A DNA stretch of 43,320 nt from Nanobdellota archaeon (GTDB lineage: Archaea; Aenigmatarchaeota; Aenigmatarchaeia; QMZP01): the NCBI GenBank assembly GCA_043814765.1, contig JBDRJQ010000027.1, forward strand, positions 1 through 43,320, written 5' to 3'. The first letter of the stretch is position 1, and every line of letters starts with the position of its first letter. A program made the position numbers and the translations under genes. The notes under the pieces were generated by a model that ran no database searches, was not told where the DNA came from, and was given only the letters and a program-made list of their open reading frames with translations. Of this stretch, positions 2,653 through 31,617 are shown piece by piece.

Positions 2653-5034
2653 ATGATTGAAGGAAAGCGCTGGGACAAATCGTTTGAAGAACCGATAAGG
2701 AAGAAATGGAAGAGTAGTGGTGTCTTTAAATTCAATCCAAAAACCAAGAAGAAAGTGTTTTCTATAGATACGCCTCCTCCATATGTTAACACTCCTATTC
2801 ACATAGGACAGGCAACCACTTACACAATACAAGACATTATAGCCCGATACAAGAGGATGCGCGGGTTTGAGGTTCTGTTCCCGTTGGGTTTGGATAGAAA
2901 TGGCCTGCCAATAGAGATGGCAGCAGAGAAGAAATTCAAAAAAACAGTTACAGATGTTGGCAGAGAGAAGTTTATCTCACTTATAGAGAAGATGCTTAAG
3001 GAAACAAGTGCAGAATCAACAGACAATTTTTACCAGTTAGGTGTGTCATTCAATTCATGGGACAGAGGAGAGAGTCCTGGTGATGTTTATTACACGGATT
3101 CAGAAAGTTACAGAGCATTAACACAGTCCACGTTTATAGATTTATGGAAACGCGGTCTGATTTACGAATCAGACAGAGTAAACAATTACTGTCCGGACTG
3201 CCAAACCACTATTGCAGATTCTGAGATACATTACAGGGAAGTTCCGACCAATTTCAATGACGTTAAATTCAAGGTAAAAGAGACAGGCAAGGAAATAATA
3301 ATAAGCACAACAAGGCCAGAGTTATTGTGCAGTTGCGCAATGATTTTGTACAATCCAAAAGATTCGCGCTACAAAGACCTGAAAGGCAAGACTGCAATAA
3401 CACCGTTATATAATAAAGAAATTCCTATAAAACCGCATCCATACGCAAAGACAGATGAAGGAACAGGTCTTGTTATGATGTGCTCCTTCGGAGACTACAC
3501 TGATGTTCGCTTCTTTAGGGAGGAAAATCTGGAGCCAATAATAGCAATAAACAGGAACGGCACAATGAATGAAAAGGCAGGTTTTTTAAAAGGCTTAAAA
3601 ATCAAGGATGCCAGGGAAAAAATAATATCCGAGCTGAAGAAGAAGGGACTGCTTGTCAAACAGGAGAAAGTTCCTCATAGATCTCCTATATGCGAAAGAA
3701 GCAAAACACCCATTGAATTTATAGGAATGCCAGAATATTATCTGAAACAGCTGGACTTCCTTCCAGATGTCAAGAGAATTTCAGACAAAGTAAAATTCTT
3801 TTCACCCCAGTCAAAACAGTTTTTAGCGGACTGGGTTAACACAGTTTCCACTGACTGGCCAATATCCCGCAGAAGATATTATGCAACGGAAATACCTTTA
3901 TGGTACTGCAAGGACTGCAAAGAGCCAATTGTTCCGCCTAAAGGTAAATACTATAAACCCTGGAAAGAAAATCCTCCCATCAAAAACTGTCCTAAATGCA
4001 AATCCAGTGATTTTGTTCCAGAATTAAGAGTTTTTGACACATGGTTTGATTCATCAATATCACCTCTTTATATTTTGAAGTATCCTTCTAAATTCTTTGA
4101 TAATGCTCAGCCATGCTCTCTTAGACCACAGGGAAGAGAGATAGTTAGAACATGGCTTTACTATACACTTCTCAGGTCGTTCCAGTTAACAGGTAAAAAT
4201 ATATTCGAAAACGCATGGGTACATTATCATGTTATTGATGAAAAGGGATTGAAGATGTCCAAATCTCTTGGCAATGTTATCTATCCTCCTGAGATACTAG
4301 AAAAATTTGGTGCAGAGCCATTCAGAGCATGGTGCGCCCTAGAAGGCAATATCACTCTATCAGACATGAGATGTTCATTTGAACGCATAGAAGGCGTTGC
4401 AAAATTCTTAACAAAGCTTTGGAATGTTGCACGCTTTGTTTCACTTTTTGAAGACAAATATAAGAAACACAAACTCATGCCAGCTGACGAATGGATACTG
4501 AAAGAGCTAAACAGACTAGTAGAATTCACTATAGAAAAATATGATAACTTTGATTTCCATGCACCAATGACAGCCATAAGACACTTCGTATGGGAGACGT
4601 TCGCATCGCATTACTTAGAGCTTGTTAAGACAAGAGCCTACAATCAGGATAAGAAGTTCAGCTTGGAAGAGCAGGGAGGAGCAATATTCACTTTAAACAA
4701 AGTTCTTGATACGCTTCTATTATTAGCAAACCCAGTGATACCTTTCATAACACACAAGCTTTACAGTGACATGCGTTGCAAGGAAATAGAGAATGAAGCC
4801 TTTCCTGAGATTGACAAGAAGATGATAAAACTAGACATACCTTTCAAAACAGAAGAGCTTGCAGAAATCAACAGCAATATATGGAAAGCAAAAAAAGACA
4901 AGGGTCTTTCTCTAAAAACACCGATAAGAGAAGTAGAGATACCGAAGAGTTTGAGCTGCCTTGAAGATGACTTCAGACTAGCGCATGGCATTGAAAAAAT
5001 AATTTACGGAAAGACTTTCAGAGTTAAGTTTTAG
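2653..5034 (+). CDS. valS: Valyl-tRNA synthetase, archaeal type
   Basis: FSIDTPPPY, HIGQ (HIGH-like), DWPISRRRY, FDTWFDSS, KMSKS; start placed at ATG 2653 (track ORF starts at 2614). Confidence 0.95.
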   Translation: MIEGKRWDKSFEEPIRKKWKSSGVFKFNPKTKKKVFSIDTPPPYVNTPIHIGQATTYTIQDIIARYKRMRGFEVLFPLGLDRNGLPIEMAAEKKFKKTVTDVGREKFISLIEKMLKETSAESTDNFYQLGVSFNSWDRGESPGDVYYTDSESYRALTQSTFIDLWKRGLIYESDRVNNYCPDCQTTIADSEIHYREVPTNFNDVKFKVKETGKEIIISTTRPELLCSCAMILYNPKDSRYKDLKGKTAITPLYNKEIPIKPHPYAKTDEGTGLVMMCSFGDYTDVRFFREENLEPIIAINRNGTMNEKAGFLKGLKIKDAREKIISELKKKGLLVKQEKVPHRSPICERSKTPIEFIGMPEYYLKQLDFLPDVKRISDKVKFFSPQSKQFLADWVNTVSTDWPISRRRYYATEIPLWYCKDCKEPIVPPKGKYYKPWKENPPIKNCPKCKSSDFVPELRVFDTWFDSSISPLYILKYPSKFFDNAQPCSLRPQGREIVRTWLYYTLLRSFQLTGKNIFENAWVHYHVIDEKGLKMSKSLGNVIYPPEILEKFGAEPFRAWCALEGNITLSDMRCSFERIEGVAKFLTKLWNVARFVSLFEDKYKKHKLMPADEWILKELNRLVEFTIEKYDNFDFHAPMTAIRHFVWETFASHYLELVKTRAYNQDKKFSLEEQGGAIFTLNKVLDTLLLLANPVIPFITHKLYSDMRCKEIENEAFPEIDKKMIKLDIPFKTEELAEINSNIWKAKKDKGLSLKTPIREVEIPKSLSCLEDDFRLAHGIEKIIYGKTFRVKF

Positions 5035-16455: not shown

Positions 16456-16492
16456 AAAAACACAATAATATTTTGTTTTTAATTTTAATAAA

Positions 16493-16563
16493 TGCGCCAG
16501 CCGAGATTCGAACTCGGGTTACCACCTTGGCAAGGTGGTGTCCTACCGCTAGACTACTGGCGC
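16493..16563 (-). tRNA. trnG: tRNA-Gly(GCC), no intron, CCA not encoded
   Basis: GCGCCAGTAGTCTAGCGGTAGGACACCACCTTGCCAAGGTGGTAACCCGAGTTCGAATCTCGGCTGGCGCA cloverleaf. Confidence 0.97.
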
Positions 16564-16639
16564 ATATTCAATTCCCTGACTATGATTGATTATTCTATTG
16601 AAGACGACTGTAAACAATGTAATAAGTCGTCCATTAAGT

Positions 16640-26695: not shown

Positions 26696-28879
26696 ATGCT
26701 TCCTCAAGTAGTACAAAAAGTTCTGGATTTATCAGGTATAGCCAGTCTTAACCCTGTTCAGAAGAAGGCTCTAGATATGGGTCTCTTAGATGATGGTAAC
26801 ATGGTTGTGGCTGCTCCCACAGCGTCTGGCAAGACTCTGGTAGCAGAGTTCGCAGCGCTTGATGCAATAAAAAAGAACAAAAAAGTGGTTTACATTGTTC
26901 CTCTCAAGGCCCTTGCTACTGAGAAGTTTGAAGAATTCAAAGAGAAGTATGAGAATCTTGGAATAAAGGTAGGAATAAGCATCGGAGATATGGATTCAAC
27001 AGATCCATGGTTAGCCAATTATGATTTGATAATTGTTACTTCAGAAAAACTGGATTCTTTGATAAGACACGGAATCCCATGGGCAGAGATGATAGGTTTA
27101 GTTGTTGTTGATGAAGTGCATCTTTTAGACTCTCCTAATCGCGGTCCAACATTGGAAATTGTTTTAACACGTTTGATACAGCTTGCGAATCCAAAGATTC
27201 TAGCACTGTCTGCAACAATAAACAACTACAAAGAACTTGCTTCTTGGTTGAATGCTAAAGCATTGAAGTCTGACTACCGTCCTGTAAAACTATATAGTGG
27301 TGTTTACCATGAAGGAACTGTTAATTTCCAACCAAATAAAAAACTTGAATTGATTGGGAAGGATGAGCCAATCAATGAACTAATAAGCGAAGTGCTATCA
27401 AAAAACAAACAGTCTCTTGTTTTTGTATCCACACGCAGATCTGCTGAATCAGTTGCGTACAAAATAGGAAATTACATTTCTAATAAACTCTCATCAGATG
27501 AAAAAGTTAAATTGGAAAAACTCTCTGAAAAGGTCATGAAAATTCTGGATCATCCAACAAAGCAATGCGAAAAAATAGCTGATTGTGTAAAAAACGGAAC
27601 AGCCTTTCATCACGCAGGCTTAACTTCGAAGCAAAGAAAGCTCATTGAAACCTCGTTCAGAGAGGGCTTGCTCAAGGTCATTACAGCCACACCTACACTT
27701 AGCTTTGGCCTTAATCTGCCTGCGTATCGCGTCATAATAAGAGACCTTAAAAGGTTCAGCAGTTTTAGCGGAATGATATACCTCCCAACGCTAGAAATCA
27801 TGCAAATGGCTGGCCGAGCAGGCCGTCCGAAGTATGATAATGAAGGAGAAGCAATTCTGATAGCTAAAAACAAGAATGAAGCGACATATGCTTGGGACAA
27901 TTATATAATAGGAGATCCAGAAGATATCTACTCAAAGCTTGGAGTAGAGCCTGTACTAAGAACGCATGTTTTAGCACTGATATCTTCAGGCGTTACGCCC
28001 GACAAAAACTCACTATTTGATTTCTTTTCTAAGACCTTTTACGCGCACCAAAAGGGCGATATACTAGAGCTTAAGATAATACTGGAAAGAGTTCTGGCAT
28101 CATTACAGCAGTTTAGGGTTATAACTATTGGCGATGGTGAACCAGTGCAAGAAGATTTGAGTGATTTCAAATCTGCTGCAAGCATGATAACACAAGGCGA
28201 AGAACTGAAGCCAACCAGAATAGGCAAACGAGTTTCAGAGCTTTACATAGACCCAATGACTGCAAACCATCTAATAGAAAAACTTCAATATGCTGATAAG
28301 AAAGGAACAAGCGATTTTGGAATTCTTCAATTAATATCCAACACAGTGGAAATGAAACCATTGCTCTCAATGAAAAAAGGAGATATGGAAATGATAAATG
28401 ATATTATTGTAAAAGAAGAATCTAGTCTAACAGATAGAATGCCAACGCCTTGGGATATAGAGTATGATGATTTCCTGTGTTCAATAAAAACCGCAGCGAT
28501 GTTTAAAGCATGGATAGAGGAAGCAGGAGAGAACAAAATACACGAAGCATTTGCAGTAACGCCAGGAGAGTTGCACGCAAGACTCTCAAACTCTGACTGG
28601 CTTCTTTATTCAGCACAAGAGCTTGCTCTGCTTTTAGGCCTGAAAGACGTAATTAAAGACATAAGGAAACTACGCATCCGAGTCAAGAACGGTATAAAGG
28701 AAGAGCTACTGCCGCTAGTCCGTTTAAAGGGCATAGGACGTGTGAGGGCAAGGACATTATACAACTTCGGCATAACATCTGTAGACGCCTTGCGCAAGTC
28801 GCCACAAGAACGGGTTGCAAAGCTAGTTGGTGAGAAGATGGCACAGTCAATAAAGGAGCAGTTAGGTGAAACAAAATAA
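26696..28879 (+). CDS. hel308: Ski2-like helicase Hel308/Hjm
   Basis: APTASGKT, DEVH, LSAT, FHHAGL, QMAGRAGRP, C-terminal GIGRVRAR HhH; start placed at ATG 26696. Confidence 0.95.
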   Translation: MLPQVVQKVLDLSGIASLNPVQKKALDMGLLDDGNMVVAAPTASGKTLVAEFAALDAIKKNKKVVYIVPLKALATEKFEEFKEKYENLGIKVGISIGDMDSTDPWLANYDLIIVTSEKLDSLIRHGIPWAEMIGLVVVDEVHLLDSPNRGPTLEIVLTRLIQLANPKILALSATINNYKELASWLNAKALKSDYRPVKLYSGVYHEGTVNFQPNKKLELIGKDEPINELISEVLSKNKQSLVFVSTRRSAESVAYKIGNYISNKLSSDEKVKLEKLSEKVMKILDHPTKQCEKIADCVKNGTAFHHAGLTSKQRKLIETSFREGLLKVITATPTLSFGLNLPAYRVIIRDLKRFSSFSGMIYLPTLEIMQMAGRAGRPKYDNEGEAILIAKNKNEATYAWDNYIIGDPEDIYSKLGVEPVLRTHVLALISSGVTPDKNSLFDFFSKTFYAHQKGDILELKIILERVLASLQQFRVITIGDGEPVQEDLSDFKSAASMITQGEELKPTRIGKRVSELYIDPMTANHLIEKLQYADKKGTSDFGILQLISNTVEMKPLLSMKKGDMEMINDIIVKEESSLTDRMPTPWDIEYDDFLCSIKTAAMFKAWIEEAGENKIHEAFAVTPGELHARLSNSDWLLYSAQELALLLGLKDVIKDIRKLRIRVKNGIKEELLPLVRLKGIGRVRARTLYNFGITSVDALRKSPQERVAKLVGEKMAQSIKEQLGETK

Positions 28880-28885
28880 AATATC

Positions 28886-28912
28886 TTTATAAGCAGGTTA
28901 TGATAATTATCA
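28886..28912 (+). promoter_or_regulatory. TATA box and 12-bp palindrome upstream of the candidate ncRNA
   Basis: TTTATAAG at 28886-28893; TGATAATTATCA at 28901-28912. Confidence 0.55.
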
Positions 28913-28920
28913 CCAATAAA

Positions 28921-29059
28921 GGGAGTTGAAACCGCGAAATCTTGGCTCAGCGTTTTACGAACTAACCGGTTGTCCATGCCTTGGCCCCAAGGATTAAGAA
29001 CATTGCCGGATGTTCAATGAGCAATGAGGATTACGTTCCTCGGACTTGGGTTAACTCCC
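28921..29059 (+). ncRNA. Candidate structured ncRNA of unknown family
   Basis: Closing stem GGGAGUUGA/UUAACUCCC; internal helices GCUCA/UGAGC, CCUUG/CAAGG, GAACAU/AUGUUC, GAGGA/UCCUC; locally GC-rich; flanked by TATA box and terminator. Confidence 0.65.
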
Positions 29060-29066
29060 TATTGGC

Positions 29067-29090
29067 GATATTCAGTGAATATCCTTTTTT
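29067..29090 (+). terminator. Hairpin plus oligo-T terminator
   Basis: GATATTC-AGT-GAATATC-C-TTTTTT. Confidence 0.6.
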
Positions 29091-29258
29091 ATTAGTCATC
29101 CTATGTAACGGGAATCATCCCAGAAGCTTTATTACATGCAAACATACCCTCCACCTCCAAGGATATTTTTTTTCTCGCTTTAAATGAATATTTCAGAATT
29201 AATTCTCACATACTACAGAAAGATTACATAATCTCTTAAATATCAAATTATAATGTTG

Positions 29259-30365
29259 TTAGTGCTTTCTGCTAATAGTTTCCTGCGTCTTTTTTGTAAT
29301 GTATATTGGTGGTATCTTTAACTTTTCCCACAGAGACTTTATGTTGGATAAAAGAAAGTCGTTTATTCCTCCTGGGTCGTAAGCCTTCAGAACCGTGAAA
29401 ATATATTTAGGCTTGAAGTTAGGTGGGTAGTATGCCAAATATTTCGGTTCCCAGAAAGTTGGGCCGAATTTTTGCTTGTAGTGATAAAGCGGTTTGAAAT
29501 GGTAAAAATAATTCAGGTTGTTATATGCAAATTTAAGAACTTGTCGGATAAACTGTCCTTTTTCTTTATCGCTTGTTACGTTTGATAGTGGAGCAGACCC
29601 CAAACTCACCAAAGAGTATCCCTCTTCTTTAAGCGTCTGGAAGGCCTCTGTTACAAGAAGTTCTGTAGTGCCTTTTATTGTCTTTTTCTTTCTCCTCATT
29701 ATGTCAAAATACATGCCATGCCTGGCGAAAAATGGCACGCAAACTAAAAATGCCTCTATGTTTTTTTTCTTGTTAACAACCAAGAAATATTTTCTATCAC
29801 CAGGCTCTTTGAATGAAGGACCACCGACCAAAAAAGAGAATTCACCTGTTTTTTTCTCCTTTAGCCATCCCTCTGATATGAGTGCTATTTGTTTTTCTAT
29901 CTTCCCATTCCTCCTTTCTTTTGGTTTGTATTCTATTACACTAAGACCATTTCTTTTTGCATAGCTTATATGATTTCTTAAAGTCATGAATGCAGAGCCA
30001 GACAAATTCCAAGAAGCCAGGTCAAAGAAAGGCTCTTCACCTATCTTTATGTAGCCGAAACCCATGATTTCAAGAACTTCTTTGAATTTTTTTGTTGTCG
30101 CCTGAAAGCAGCAGTCCTTTCCCATGTTTCTGCAAAAATTCCTAAATTCATGAACAAACTTCATTACGTCAGAATCTGAACAGACGGCGTCTCCAGCAAC
30201 AAGAAAGGTGTTTGTTATGTCTACATATGCTATAACGCCTTCTATTTCCTGTTCACTGAAGAAATATTTTTTATCATTACTAAGGATGTTGTAAGAAGAA
30301 GAGTTGTAACCATATTTCTTCAAAAAATCCAAGACTCGGGCCCTTTCGTTTTGTGATTTTTTCAT
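29259..30365 (-). CDS. Standalone MprF-like aminoacyl-phosphatidylglycerol synthase domain (DUF2156)
   Basis: AGDAVC, KIGEE, GEFSFLVG, FDIMRR...GTTELL, SLGSAPL, FYHFKPLYHYKQKFGP.WEPKYLAY; no TM region. Confidence 0.88.
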   Translation of the reverse strand: MKKSQNERARVLDFLKKYGYNSSSYNILSNDKKYFFSEQEIEGVIAYVDITNTFLVAGDAVCSDSDVMKFVHEFRNFCRNMGKDCCFQATTKKFKEVLEIMGFGYIKIGEEPFFDLASWNLSGSAFMTLRNHISYAKRNGLSVIEYKPKERRNGKIEKQIALISEGWLKEKKTGEFSFLVGGPSFKEPGDRKYFLVVNKKKNIEAFLVCVPFFARHGMYFDIMRRKKKTIKGTTELLVTEAFQTLKEEGYSLVSLGSAPLSNVTSDKEKGQFIRQVLKFAYNNLNYFYHFKPLYHYKQKFGPTFWEPKYLAYYPPNFKPKYIFTVLKAYDPGGINDFLLSNIKSLWEKLKIPPIYITKKTQETISRKH

Positions 30366-30375
30366 TTGTTAAATT

Positions 30376-30663
30376 TTATTTTTTGGTTATATATACAAGG
30401 GGGATTAATCCACCTAACTGCAAAAGGTTCAGTATCAGATTGTGCAAGAATATTTCATCAGCGTAGTCAACTCCGGACAACATCCTAAGATAAATGGCTG
30501 ACAGATTGTTCAATAAGAGCAGTGCGGAAAAAATCAGCAACCCCAACGTGAATTCTGATTTTATTTTTCTGAAGCTTGACCAGTAAAAACTGACTAAATA
30601 TGTCAGAAGTAATGAATTGATTATTCTTACGAAAACTATCATATACAGAAGCTCTATAGTCAT
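30376..30663 (-). CDS. Small 3-TM membrane protein
   Basis: KSEFTLGLLIFS motif; follows the wHTH regulator. Confidence 0.8.
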   Translation of the reverse strand: MTIELLYMIVFVRIINSLLLTYLVSFYWSSFRKIKSEFTLGLLIFSALLLLNNLSAIYLRMLSGVDYADEIFLHNLILNLLQLGGLIPLVYITKK

Positions 30664-30700
30664 AATATCAATATTCCATTTATCTATATTTATTCTTATT

Positions 30701-30991
30701 TCACATTTTCTTCAAAATTTCTTCAAATGTGCTGATTTCGGACTGAAATATATCGGTTAGGAAGTAAACCTCCCCGTATTTTTTGCTGTCGCATGCTATG
30801 AATTCATTATCTACAAGAATTTTTATATGATGAATTATGGTCCTGTAGTCCAGCCCAAGTTCTTTACTTAGCTGATGTGAGTTGAATGGTCTCTGCCTTA
30901 ACAGTTCTATAATCTTTATTCTATTCAATCCTCCTTTGGTTCCTGCAAAGGTATACCACATAAGATGCCTTAGTCTCTGAGGAGTTATCAT
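30701..30991 (-). CDS. Winged helix-turn-helix (ArsR-like) transcription regulator
   Basis: GTKGGLNRIKII...RPFNSHQLSKELGLDYRTIIHHIKIL...YGEVYFL. Confidence 0.9.
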   Translation of the reverse strand: MITPQRLRHLMWYTFAGTKGGLNRIKIIELLRQRPFNSHQLSKELGLDYRTIIHHIKILVDNEFIACDSKKYGEVYFLTDIFQSEISTFEEILKKM

Positions 30992-31047
30992 AAGATAGTT
31001 TTGAATTTCCTATTTAAATCGATAATTTCTGAATTATATATTTAAAA

Positions 31048-31066
31048 CGGTCTTTCATCAAGACCG
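31048..31066. promoter_or_regulatory. Inverted repeat upstream of the wHTH operon
   Basis: CGGTCTT-TCATC-AAGACCG next to a TTTAAATA TATA-like box on the minus strand. Confidence 0.5.
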
Positions 31067-31108
31067 CTATAAACAACAATAAATTATTAGAATTATATGC
31101 TATTGAGT

Positions 31109-31225
31109 TTATTTCTTTGCGACCCCTGATTCAAAGGATTTCAAGCTTGAATCTGTGTTGGTTTTGTTTTTAGCGACTTCTCTTCTTGCTGGTTTTCCCT
31201 TGACAGTCATATTTTTAGCTTTCAT
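31109..31225 (-). CDS. 38-aa basic microprotein (not in the ORF track)
   Basis: MKAKNMTVKGKPARREVAKNKTNTDSSLKSFESGVAKK*, preceded by a GGTGAT Shine-Dalgarno. Confidence 0.55.
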   Translation of the reverse strand: MKAKNMTVKGKPARREVAKNKTNTDSSLKSFESGVAKK

Positions 31226-31290
31226 ATTATCACCAATAACTCATTATTAGACCAGAATTTAAACTTATTTCATAATTACTACATAATAAT

Positions 31291-31617
31291 ATGATCGGAA
31301 AAAAACTGTATCCAGAAAAGTTCTGCAAAACAATAGAGCATGCAGACAGTCTTTGGAAGCAGACCAAGGGCCTGATGTTTAGAAAATCCATACCAAAATA
31401 TCATGGTATGCTTTTCACCTTTAATCACGAAGCCAAGCATGGCATATGGATGCTCTTCATGCGCTTTCCGATAGATATTTACTTCTTGGATAAAGACATG
31501 AAAGTCGTATATCAAGTAAAAAACGCGAAACCATTAAATCCACTGAAACCTTCCACATGGAAAGTTTATACACCTAAAAAACCAGCCAAGTATGTTTTAG
31601 AGGTCAAATCCAATTGA
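31291..31617 (+). CDS. DUF192 family protein
   Basis: GLMFR, GMLF, WMLFMRFPIDIYFLD, AKYVLEV. Confidence 0.92.
   Translation: MIGKKLYPEKFCKTIEHADSLWKQTKGLMFRKSIPKYHGMLFTFNHEAKHGIWMLFMRFPIDIYFLDKDMKVVYQVKNAKPLNPLKPSTWKVYTPKKPAKYVLEVKSN

Follow-up and report, generated by a model that had tools for sequence, protein, structure and literature searches.

The stretch of DNA analysed here (the window) covers 43,320 nucleotides (nt), positions 1 to 43,320 of contig JBDRJQ010000027.1 in assembly GCA_043814765.1, from a Nanobdellota archaeon (GTDB lineage Aenigmatarchaeota; Aenigmatarchaeia; QMZP01) whose genome, G000, comprises 859 kb in 39 contigs and is 88% complete. Within it, a gene for a Hel308-type helicase ends at 28879 and a gene on the opposite strand, whose protein matches LPG_synthase_C (DUF2156) at E 3e-58, ends at 29259. 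The space between them holds a module of about 300 nt (28886-29185) built around two RNA elements: a Y-shaped RNA domain (28909-29070, described here without prejudice as to strand), in which a rod leads through a three-way junction into two arms, and a kink-turn (K-turn) hairpin (29094-29121) on the minus strand. Two facing TATA-like boxes bracket these elements, box 1 being TTTATAAG (28886-28893), which faces right on the plus strand, and box 2 TTTAAAT (29179-29185), which faces left on the minus strand. An earlier note, made from the sequence alone, had named the two flanking genes correctly and had described the Y-shaped part of this arrangement as a free-standing structured RNA. Its observation is partly confirmed and its interpretation partly supported, and its gene model is incomplete, as the closing helix extends to 28913-28918/29060-29065 and the K-turn half was missed.

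The rod of the Y-shaped domain opens with helix P1, in which CCAAUA (28913-28918) pairs with UAUUGG (29060-29065) in the alignment to covariance model R2. Relatives carry CCAAGG/CCUUGG at the same place, the version in the window being a two-pair compensatory change, and this conserved helix sets the beginning of the structure upstream of 28921, where the RNA had been proposed to start. Helix P2 pairs GGGAGUUGA (28921-28929, 27 nt past TTTATAAG) with UUAACUCCC (29051-29059), as the earlier note had read it and as the fold and R2 agree, and aligns with GGAGA/UCUCC in relatives. The P3 arm (28945-29022) stands on a conserved base, GCUCA (28945-28949) with UGAGC (29018-29022), and carries a 68-nt tip (28950-29017) that is a private insertion of the window; tips range from 8 nt to about 70 nt across the family. 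The base GCUC/GAGC is kept in six of eight aligned sequences, is visible by eye in a seventh (from genome G018, where the model misaligned it), and is replaced by GCGG/CCGC in L073. In the minimum-energy fold this base closes a single long arm of nested helices and not, as had been proposed, a multiloop with three separate hairpins, and the suggested pseudoknot between GCCGG and CCGGU turns out to be an ordinary nested helix. The second arm, P4, consists of the hairpin GAGGA-UUACGU-UCCUC (29026-29041, already recognised by the earlier note) and the following GGACUUGGG, and as a whole (29026-29050) is the most conserved stretch and the hallmark of the family. Its stem varies between GAGGA/UCCUC, GGGA/UCCC and ACGGAA/UUCCGU, with a loop that stays U-UNCG-U-like on the plus strand. 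In essence, the homologues share a rod of P1 (CCAAGG/CCUUGG), P2 (GGAGA/UCUCC) and an inner helix, a three-way junction, a variable P3 (GCUC/GAGC) and a near-invariant P4 followed by GGACUUG. Beyond the rod lies a linker (29067-29090) of a hairpin (29067-29083) and a T6 run (29085-29090; A6 on the minus strand), both present as first reported.

Folded alone, the window sequence is not better than chance on the plus strand (-42.9 kcal/mol, z -1.61, 13 of 200 shuffles as good; z -2.41 on the minus strand), so the reality of the fold rests on its homologues and on covariation. Finding these required covariance models, as plain DNA and strict-pattern searches understate the family: a plain DNA search of 61 genomes returned only matches of 26-34 nt in G057 and G059, which belong to another taxonomic family, a strict 24-nt pattern matched in 4 of the 91 genomes of the order, and an exact-pattern scan added one metagenome contig, L073. 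Alignment of the raw sequences by MAFFT followed by RNAalifold recovered only P4, or P1 and P4, because of length variation. Since sequence alignment alone had failed, the covariance model was seeded from one sequence with its minimum-energy fold and then iterated. An alignment fitted to a seed structure yields pair counts that lean toward that structure, and independent, unbiased support therefore comes from single-sequence folds: each of four homologues, folded singly, adopts the same Y shape (z -4.82, -4.08, -3.51 and -3.03). Model R2, built without the window, finds the domain at 28909-29070 with 29.4 bits (E 3.9e-6), the next best match in the 43 kb scoring 10.9 bits, and the final model, R3, gives the domain 57.7 bits. 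Across the eight aligned sequences, 88.1% of cells are paired and both partners vary in 23 of the 34 pairs, with compensatory changes maintaining pairs in five helices. None of 500 column shuffles reached the observed values for four of five measures and a single one reached the fifth, and sliding the partners lowered pairing to at most 51.5% of cells. The covarying homologues that the earlier note had called for thus exist, and the fold is a real, evolutionarily conserved RNA structure of a new family.

At E<=0.1, R3 detects the domain in 13 of the order's 91 genomes, including one doubtful case; the metagenome contig carries it too. The 13 are the window's own genome, 7 of the 46 others of its family, 4 of the 14 in the family of the first sighting and the doubtful case in a third family; weaker model hits share the P4 hallmark. 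Genomes carry one copy or two diverged copies, and G022 holds two head to tail (L087, G022:C44:3905-4087) with one shared K-turn hairpin downstream. Loci L080 (G028) and L089 (G045) are kept as doubtful only. Three matches were dropped, L068 and L074 as chance matches in an rpoB-like and a transporter-like coding frame, respectively, and L082 (G004, 20 bits) as coding. We also rejected the idea that the window RNA is a circular permutation of the form seen in f6, as the order of helices does not fit, and that of a hammerhead-like core (CAGAUGA...CGGAC in G057), which other members lack.

Comparison with known RNAs supports the view that this family had not been recognised. Scans of the window with Rfam 15 at the gathering threshold gave a tRNA at 16493-16563 as the sole match (ARAGORN found only a tRNA-Gly, at 16492-16564), a sensitive scan of 28800-29300 gave only three chance-level matches (E 6-8), and eight homologue loci gave none. 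As the earlier note had it, model scans rule out the signal recognition particle (SRP), RNase P, 5S and tRNA identities. The SRP RNA lies elsewhere (contig C32, 133.8 bits), as does an RNase P RNA candidate (G000:C29:6798-7150), which matches end to end over 353 nt with 57.8 bits, below the gathering score of 84. The words AAGUC/GACUU recall the P4 of RNase P, a resemblance only, the genome having its own candidate for that RNA. A minus-strand frame through P4, KSEERNPH, is not conserved: G057 and G059 have it open, and the window's version lacks a start and is interrupted by TAA. A full-text literature search on structured RNAs in DPANN archaea and Aenigmarchaeota returned nothing specific, and on this search, another on L7Ae regulation and Rfam 15 the RNA family is undescribed so far.

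The K-turn hairpin reads GGGAUGAUUCC-CGUUACAUA-GGAUGACU on the minus strand. Here, GGGAUGAUUC and GAUGACC flank a hairpin and supply a G-C stem, a GAU bulge, a G.A and an A.G pair, a U.U at 3b.3n and a distal stem. The sequence GG-GAU-GA-U...U-GA-C(U/C) is found in the window and in all 14 loci examined. These loci form two groups: the nine best (the window, G057, G059, G064, L073, G074, G063, G018 and G068) and a second group of five (G014, G067, G022 and two paralogues, G074:C25 and G018:C3). The three-nt bulge with tandem G.A and A.G pairs, whose sheared geometry the sequence predicts, is flanked by Watson-Crick canonical (C) and non-canonical (NC) stems, the C-stem being GG/CC in most loci and a weaker GG/CU in the window. 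Such a pattern is described for K-turn stem-loops that bind L7Ae (PMC6298567). The plus strand has no G.A pairs at this site and cannot form a K-turn. Across loci, 99 distinct matches to the regular expression were collected, and the 37 with at least three nested distal pairs were used for statistics; among these, U.U stands at 3b.3n in 30, the NC-stem covaries, its third distal pair being C-G in 23 and U-A in 10, and deeper pairs vary freely. An L7Ae-family protein is encoded elsewhere in the genome (C28:61886-62164, 106 bits), and the K-turn is a candidate L7Ae docking site.

The Y domain is physically coupled to this minus-strand K-turn in every one of the 14 loci. The hairpin lies 14-27 nt past the end of the model in all nine best loci and 37-137 nt away in the five further loci, which include the two paralogues. 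In other taxonomic families K-turn hairpins stand without the Y domain: R3 found it at none of 19 such K-turn loci, its sole matches beside a K-turn in this comparison being the two paralogues, G074:C25 and G018:C3 (18.9 and 12 bits). Genes after the K-turn differ between families, and the l7ae gene of the present genome is on another contig, so the hairpin of the module is not that of an l7ae leader.

Several observations concern this hairpin beyond the module. A looser pattern, GGGAUGAKUY..RGAUGACC, is present in 143 of 371 genomes from the phylum, as a rule once in each, a count that includes chance hits in coding sequence; the reversed pattern, as a control, occurs in about 15 genomes. Across the phylum the hairpin often follows a TATA-like box by 25-30 nt (the window and L131-L160), and judged from these sequences it looks like a phylum-wide L7Ae target other than the l7ae leader. 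At L131, L132 and L159 a look-alike rod with ACCCAAG and a GGA..UCC hairpin follows the K-turn, as seen by eye only. In family f18 (L141, L144, L146, L148, L150 and L154) the K-turn stands 42-88 nt before a gene for a zinc-ribbon protein of 58-76 amino acids; of the six proteins, the two that were tested match Pfam Zn_ribbon_RPB9 (E 3e-7 and 6e-6), and the other four were judged by eye.

The spacing of the surrounding signals is itself conserved. Box 1, present as the earlier note claimed, occurs in all nine best loci, 21-24 nt upstream of the model start in eight and 30 nt upstream in L073, whose match begins 8 nt inside. Whole-locus alignments place an 11-mer, GGAAUCAUCCC, at a near-constant distance beyond T6, followed by box 2, which is found in eight of the nine best loci, 63-71 nt before the K-turn. 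Between box 2 and the K-turn, a Shine-Dalgarno-like word, GGAGGUGGAGGG (29158 to 29147), precedes an AUG that opens a 14-codon frame (29145 to 29101) running into the K-turn, the two together occupying 29101-29158 of the minus strand. A Shine-Dalgarno-like word and an AUG lie 35-44 nt before the K-turn in eight of the nine best loci; the short frames have 7-28 codons and often stop at the K-turn's own UGA, and their peptides are unrelated between loci. Past box 2, alignments A1 and A2 show a conserved block (29187-29235, GAAUAUUUCAGAAUUAAUUCU... in the window) with a palindrome at 29189-29212, a possible operator. A 15-nt AT-rich inverted repeat (28874-88 / 29159-73, 87% complementary) brackets the Y domain and the K-turn and may be due to chance in AT-rich DNA.

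A pair of minus-strand genes accompanies the RNA module, encoding in the window a small membrane protein (30376-30663) and an ArsR-like winged helix-turn-helix repressor (30701-30991; the pair spans 30376-30991). The repressor matches Pfam HTH_5 at E 7.6e-8, with weak, below-cut-off NCBIfam matches to ArsR/SmtB and SdpR, and neither protein matches PHROGs. At least eight of the nine best loci have an ArsR-like gene next to the module; seven of these also have the gene for the membrane protein, as does the doubtful locus of G045, and L073 is cut off too early to reveal the cassette genes. These genes lie on the K-turn strand in eight of the nine best loci, and the module is coupled to this ArsR-type cassette. 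The repressor also has paralogues in 41 of the 91 genomes, most with no RNA nearby. No RNA match was found beside a row of ArsR-like, membrane-protein and DUF2156-sized genes in G009, nor in the corresponding stretch of G053, which was scanned with the covariance model only.

In the window, DUF2156 stands between the module and the repressor/membrane gene pair, and the earlier note had raised a possible tie between RNA and enzyme. This tie finds no support: among RNA-bearing loci with flanks read, DUF2156 adjoins the RNA in the window only. The sister species G001 (L163 = G001:C18 and L164 = G001:C67, compared with window positions 28879-31291) has the same helicase, DUF2156 and DUF192-like genes, with the helicase and DUF2156 stops about 10 bases apart and no 380-nt non-coding module. 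The repressor/membrane pair is likewise missing upstream of DUF2156, with the next gene on each side conserved. Because G001 lacks all of these at the same site, the module and the gene pair were acquired or lost jointly, and because it keeps DUF2156 without either, that gene is a bystander. On the K-turn strand, a co-directional gene follows the domain in seven of the nine best loci. Among the products are a CorA transporter (272 bits), a PLDc_N protein, a ZIP-like protein whose 30 bits fall short of the Pfam cut-off, and several small secreted proteins that belong to no family.

Tentatively, and as something short of an even prospect, we read the module (28886-29185) as a convergent two-promoter sense/antisense RNA control unit of an accessory cassette. 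Two well-placed facing promoter-like boxes suggest that both strands are transcribed, in which case the minus-strand transcript would run antisense through the Y domain. From the arrangement of the sequence we infer that both promoters fire, that L7Ae binds and that regulation proceeds as follows. Box 1 would give rise to a plus-strand RNA of about 150-180 nt that folds as the Y domain. Box 2 would start a minus-strand RNA near the short frame, which would form the L7Ae-docking K-turn hairpin, meet no U-run and continue antisense through the whole Y domain and, in seven of the nine best loci, into the following gene (e.g. that for the CorA or the ZIP-like protein). The extent of read-through and translation would then depend on the two RNAs pairing or colliding and on L7Ae bound to the K-turn. 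In the window, which has no following gene, the module would act only on itself or in trans. Each strand has its own points in favour: the K-turn forms on the minus strand only, and no U-run of four or more lies between K-turn and domain on that strand in the loci read, both of which favour minus; the spacing of box 1 is fixed, including in the window, where this box has no minus-strand gene to serve, which favours plus.

Several observations weigh against a control unit working from both strands. A covarying fold requires selection on one strand only, and the tests of which strand this is are split. G-U pairs and A-C cells number 12 each in an alignment fitted to the plus strand and favour neither, as does fold energy, which is better on plus in three of seven sequences and on minus in four. 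The fold z score is better on minus in five of seven sequences. On the plus strand, the unpaired junction letters comprise 95 U and 53 A, with U exceeding A in all eight sequences; because unpaired positions of structured RNAs are generally A-rich, this also favours minus. The P4 loops (UACG, UGCG and UUCG) are UNCG-like on the plus strand only and favour plus. With regard to the boxes, box 1 is nearly palindromic and could serve the next minus-strand gene instead, and the loci of the second group, which keep the K-turn, lack box 2 and have no box 1 at a convincing position: the TATA-like word of G067 stands 38 nt upstream of the model start and that of the G074 paralogue 48-50 nt upstream, and no promoter box precedes the domain in G014 or G022. 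The minus strand of the window, like that of G063, has no gene after the module, and the domain is dispensable, as only 13 of the 91 genomes of the order carry it. The sole RNA run, metatranscriptome X1 (contigs), holds 7% of sampled words and covers the helicase and DUF2156 genes only in part, at 90-95% similarity; it has nothing over 28005-29721 and says nothing either way on the module.

A possible reading, if on the unlikely side, is that of one minus-strand RNA of about 230-260 nt that begins at box 2, passes through the short 5′ frame and the K-turn and, after an A-rich linker, continues into the reverse complement of the Y domain, with a non-functional plus strand. Such an RNA would serve as an L7Ae-bound ribonucleoprotein (RNP) RNA or as a structured leader of the following gene. 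It accounts for a strand-specific K-turn that always accompanies the domain, for unpaired letters that are A-rich on minus in eight of eight sequences, for the better minus z score in five of seven, and for the lack of a G-U excess on plus despite an alignment fitted to that strand. The K-turn kept at second-group loci that lack box 2 and a convincing box 1 agrees with it, as do the cassette genes on the same strand (eight of nine best loci) and the co-directional gene that follows (seven of nine). However, it leaves unexplained why box 1 stands at a set distance from P1 in all nine best loci, even in the window, and why the P4 loops are UNCG on plus only; energy favours plus in three of seven sequences, and a promoter between leader and gene would bypass the leader.

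The model of the earlier note, an independent plus-strand small RNA of about 150-180 nt from box 1 to T6 with the K-turn as a separate syntenic neighbour, is unlikely in our judgement. What stands of it is the structured RNA, without match in Rfam, and the conserved TATA-like box upstream, present in all nine best loci; the UNCG-like P4 loop on plus also speaks for it. The K-turn, being found across the phylum without the domain, can be taken as an element in its own right. On the terminator the evidence is divided: T6 is present in the window and a T-run of at least four stands at this linker position in five of the nine best loci, as read by eye, which speaks for the model, but the other four have no T-run between domain and K-turn, such runs not being conserved. 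A free-standing gene that ends at T6 also leaves unexplained the minus-strand-only K-turn beside the domain in 14 of 14 loci, in three gene contexts and including two paralogues, as well as the conserved second box that faces it. Unpaired positions are U-rich on plus, and the domains of G014 and G022 lack a box.

Very improbable is an element that is mobile or acts at the DNA level, for instance a small non-autonomous insertion or a group of sites bound by protein, with incidental hairpins. Its appeal lies in the presence of the module at this site in only one of two congeneric species, the patchy distribution (13 of 91 genomes), the tandem duplicate in G022 and the AT-rich inverted repeat around the module. 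A DNA site has no need of compensatory changes in five helices, however, and one copy or two diverged copies per genome do not make a dispersed repeat; no direct repeats were found at the ends, and viral contigs gave no hit to the P4 pattern.

A very divergent 5S rRNA is scarcely credible and was rejected: the idea was taken seriously because no 5S is detectable in the genome with RF00001 (nor in the sister G001, 83% complete), and a domain of about 120-160 nt with a closing helix, a three-way junction and two arms is 5S-like in shape and size, but the locus gives no RF00001 match even at E<=10 (threshold 38 bits), family members' 5S sequences are nearly uniform, unlike those of the Y domain, G059 and G018 carry a canonical 5S as well as the Y-domain RNA, and the sister species lacks the locus altogether. 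The 5S genes of G000 (88% complete, in 39 contigs) and G001 may be unassembled or unusually divergent; among the 61 genomes searched (G000 and 60 relatives), 47 have a 5S above the cut-off. The insertions that lengthen 5S genes of relatives to 149-182 nt spoke in favour of the idea. Archaeal 5S rRNA can have its own promoter. The Y-domain RNA also differs from it in lacking the conserved loop sequences and in being dispensable and patchy.

Set against known systems, the convergent two-promoter unit shares features with several and differs from each. The 5′ leader of archaeal l7ae mRNA carries a K-turn stem-loop through which L7Ae regulates its own synthesis (PMC5539422, PMC6298567). Like that K-turn, the one in the module lies close to a Shine-Dalgarno-like word and AUG and a few tens of nt past a putative promoter, and L7Ae would be its expected ligand. 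In contrast, the K-turn of the module does not precede an l7ae gene, the adjoining frame of 7-28 codons is not conserved, and a covarying domain of 110-160 nt comes after it in this order. The C-like GGGAUGA and D-like AUGA words that form the K-turn recall archaeal box C/D small RNAs; unlike in these, the intervening sequence is a closed hairpin of 10-31 nt, with no C′/D′ boxes and no single-stranded guides of 10-12 nt. We rejected a box C/D identity, as the C-like/D-like spacer is self-paired and there are no internal boxes.

Plasmids and type I toxin-antitoxin loci offer a parallel in their control by convergent sense and antisense RNAs (CopA/CopT, RNAI/RNAII and Sok/hok). The module resembles these units in its facing promoter-like boxes a few hundred nt apart, in a short, highly structured RNA with full complementarity to the leader of a longer transcript, and in a short leader frame. 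It differs in being known from sequence alone, in having no conserved toxin-like peptide, and in being archaeal, chromosomal and single-copy with a K-turn. M-box, NiCo and yybP-ykoY are metal-sensing leader RNAs of bacteria, and like these the module places a junctioned, conserved fold upstream of metal transporter genes in some loci (CorA, ZIP-like), here in a cassette with an ArsR/SmtB-type regulator. Unlike them, it has no Rfam match and no evident ligand pocket, a promoter-like box lies between fold and gene, and two of the nine best loci are gene-less.

To our knowledge, few non-coding RNAs of DPANN archaea are known beyond rRNA, tRNA, SRP RNA and RNase P RNA. According to the full-text literature search, no DPANN regulatory RNA has been characterised so far. 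If the convergent-RNA reading is true, the module would be a rare case of archaeal antisense control coupled to a K-turn protein switch. We hold it doubtful that it is a new kind of archaeal device, in which a K-turn/L7Ae-gated transcript and a fully complementary Y RNA that folds independently set the expression of metal-transport genes, or else a single new L7Ae RNP RNA. The former would be made from facing promoters and carried with an ArsR/SdpR-type repressor and its small membrane partner in DPANN archaea; the latter, a single K-turn and Y-domain RNP RNA, would be without counterpart among the K-turn RNPs (C/D, H/ACA, RNase P and ribosome). Model R3 of the covarying fold can be used to find more members, the K-turn hairpin marks a candidate L7Ae regulon outside the l7ae gene, and the sister species provides a natural presence/absence pair for tests of function.

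The search for 5S rRNA also brought up observations apart from the module. In many relatives the 5S genes are lengthened by insertions to 149-182 nt (G004:C46:3340-3513, G059:C5:16234-16395 and G052:C30:1842-1990; L059, L053 and L051), and model scores drop as the insertions lengthen. The insertion site is the conserved CCCAU..CGAAC loop region in G004 and G059 and the other arm in G052. Beside the 5S gene stands a tRNA with a GTC-type anticodon arm, intact in G041 (L060) and interrupted by about 200 nt in its T-arm region in G047:C14 (~2860-3130; L043), where the interruption may be a long intron or an insertion.

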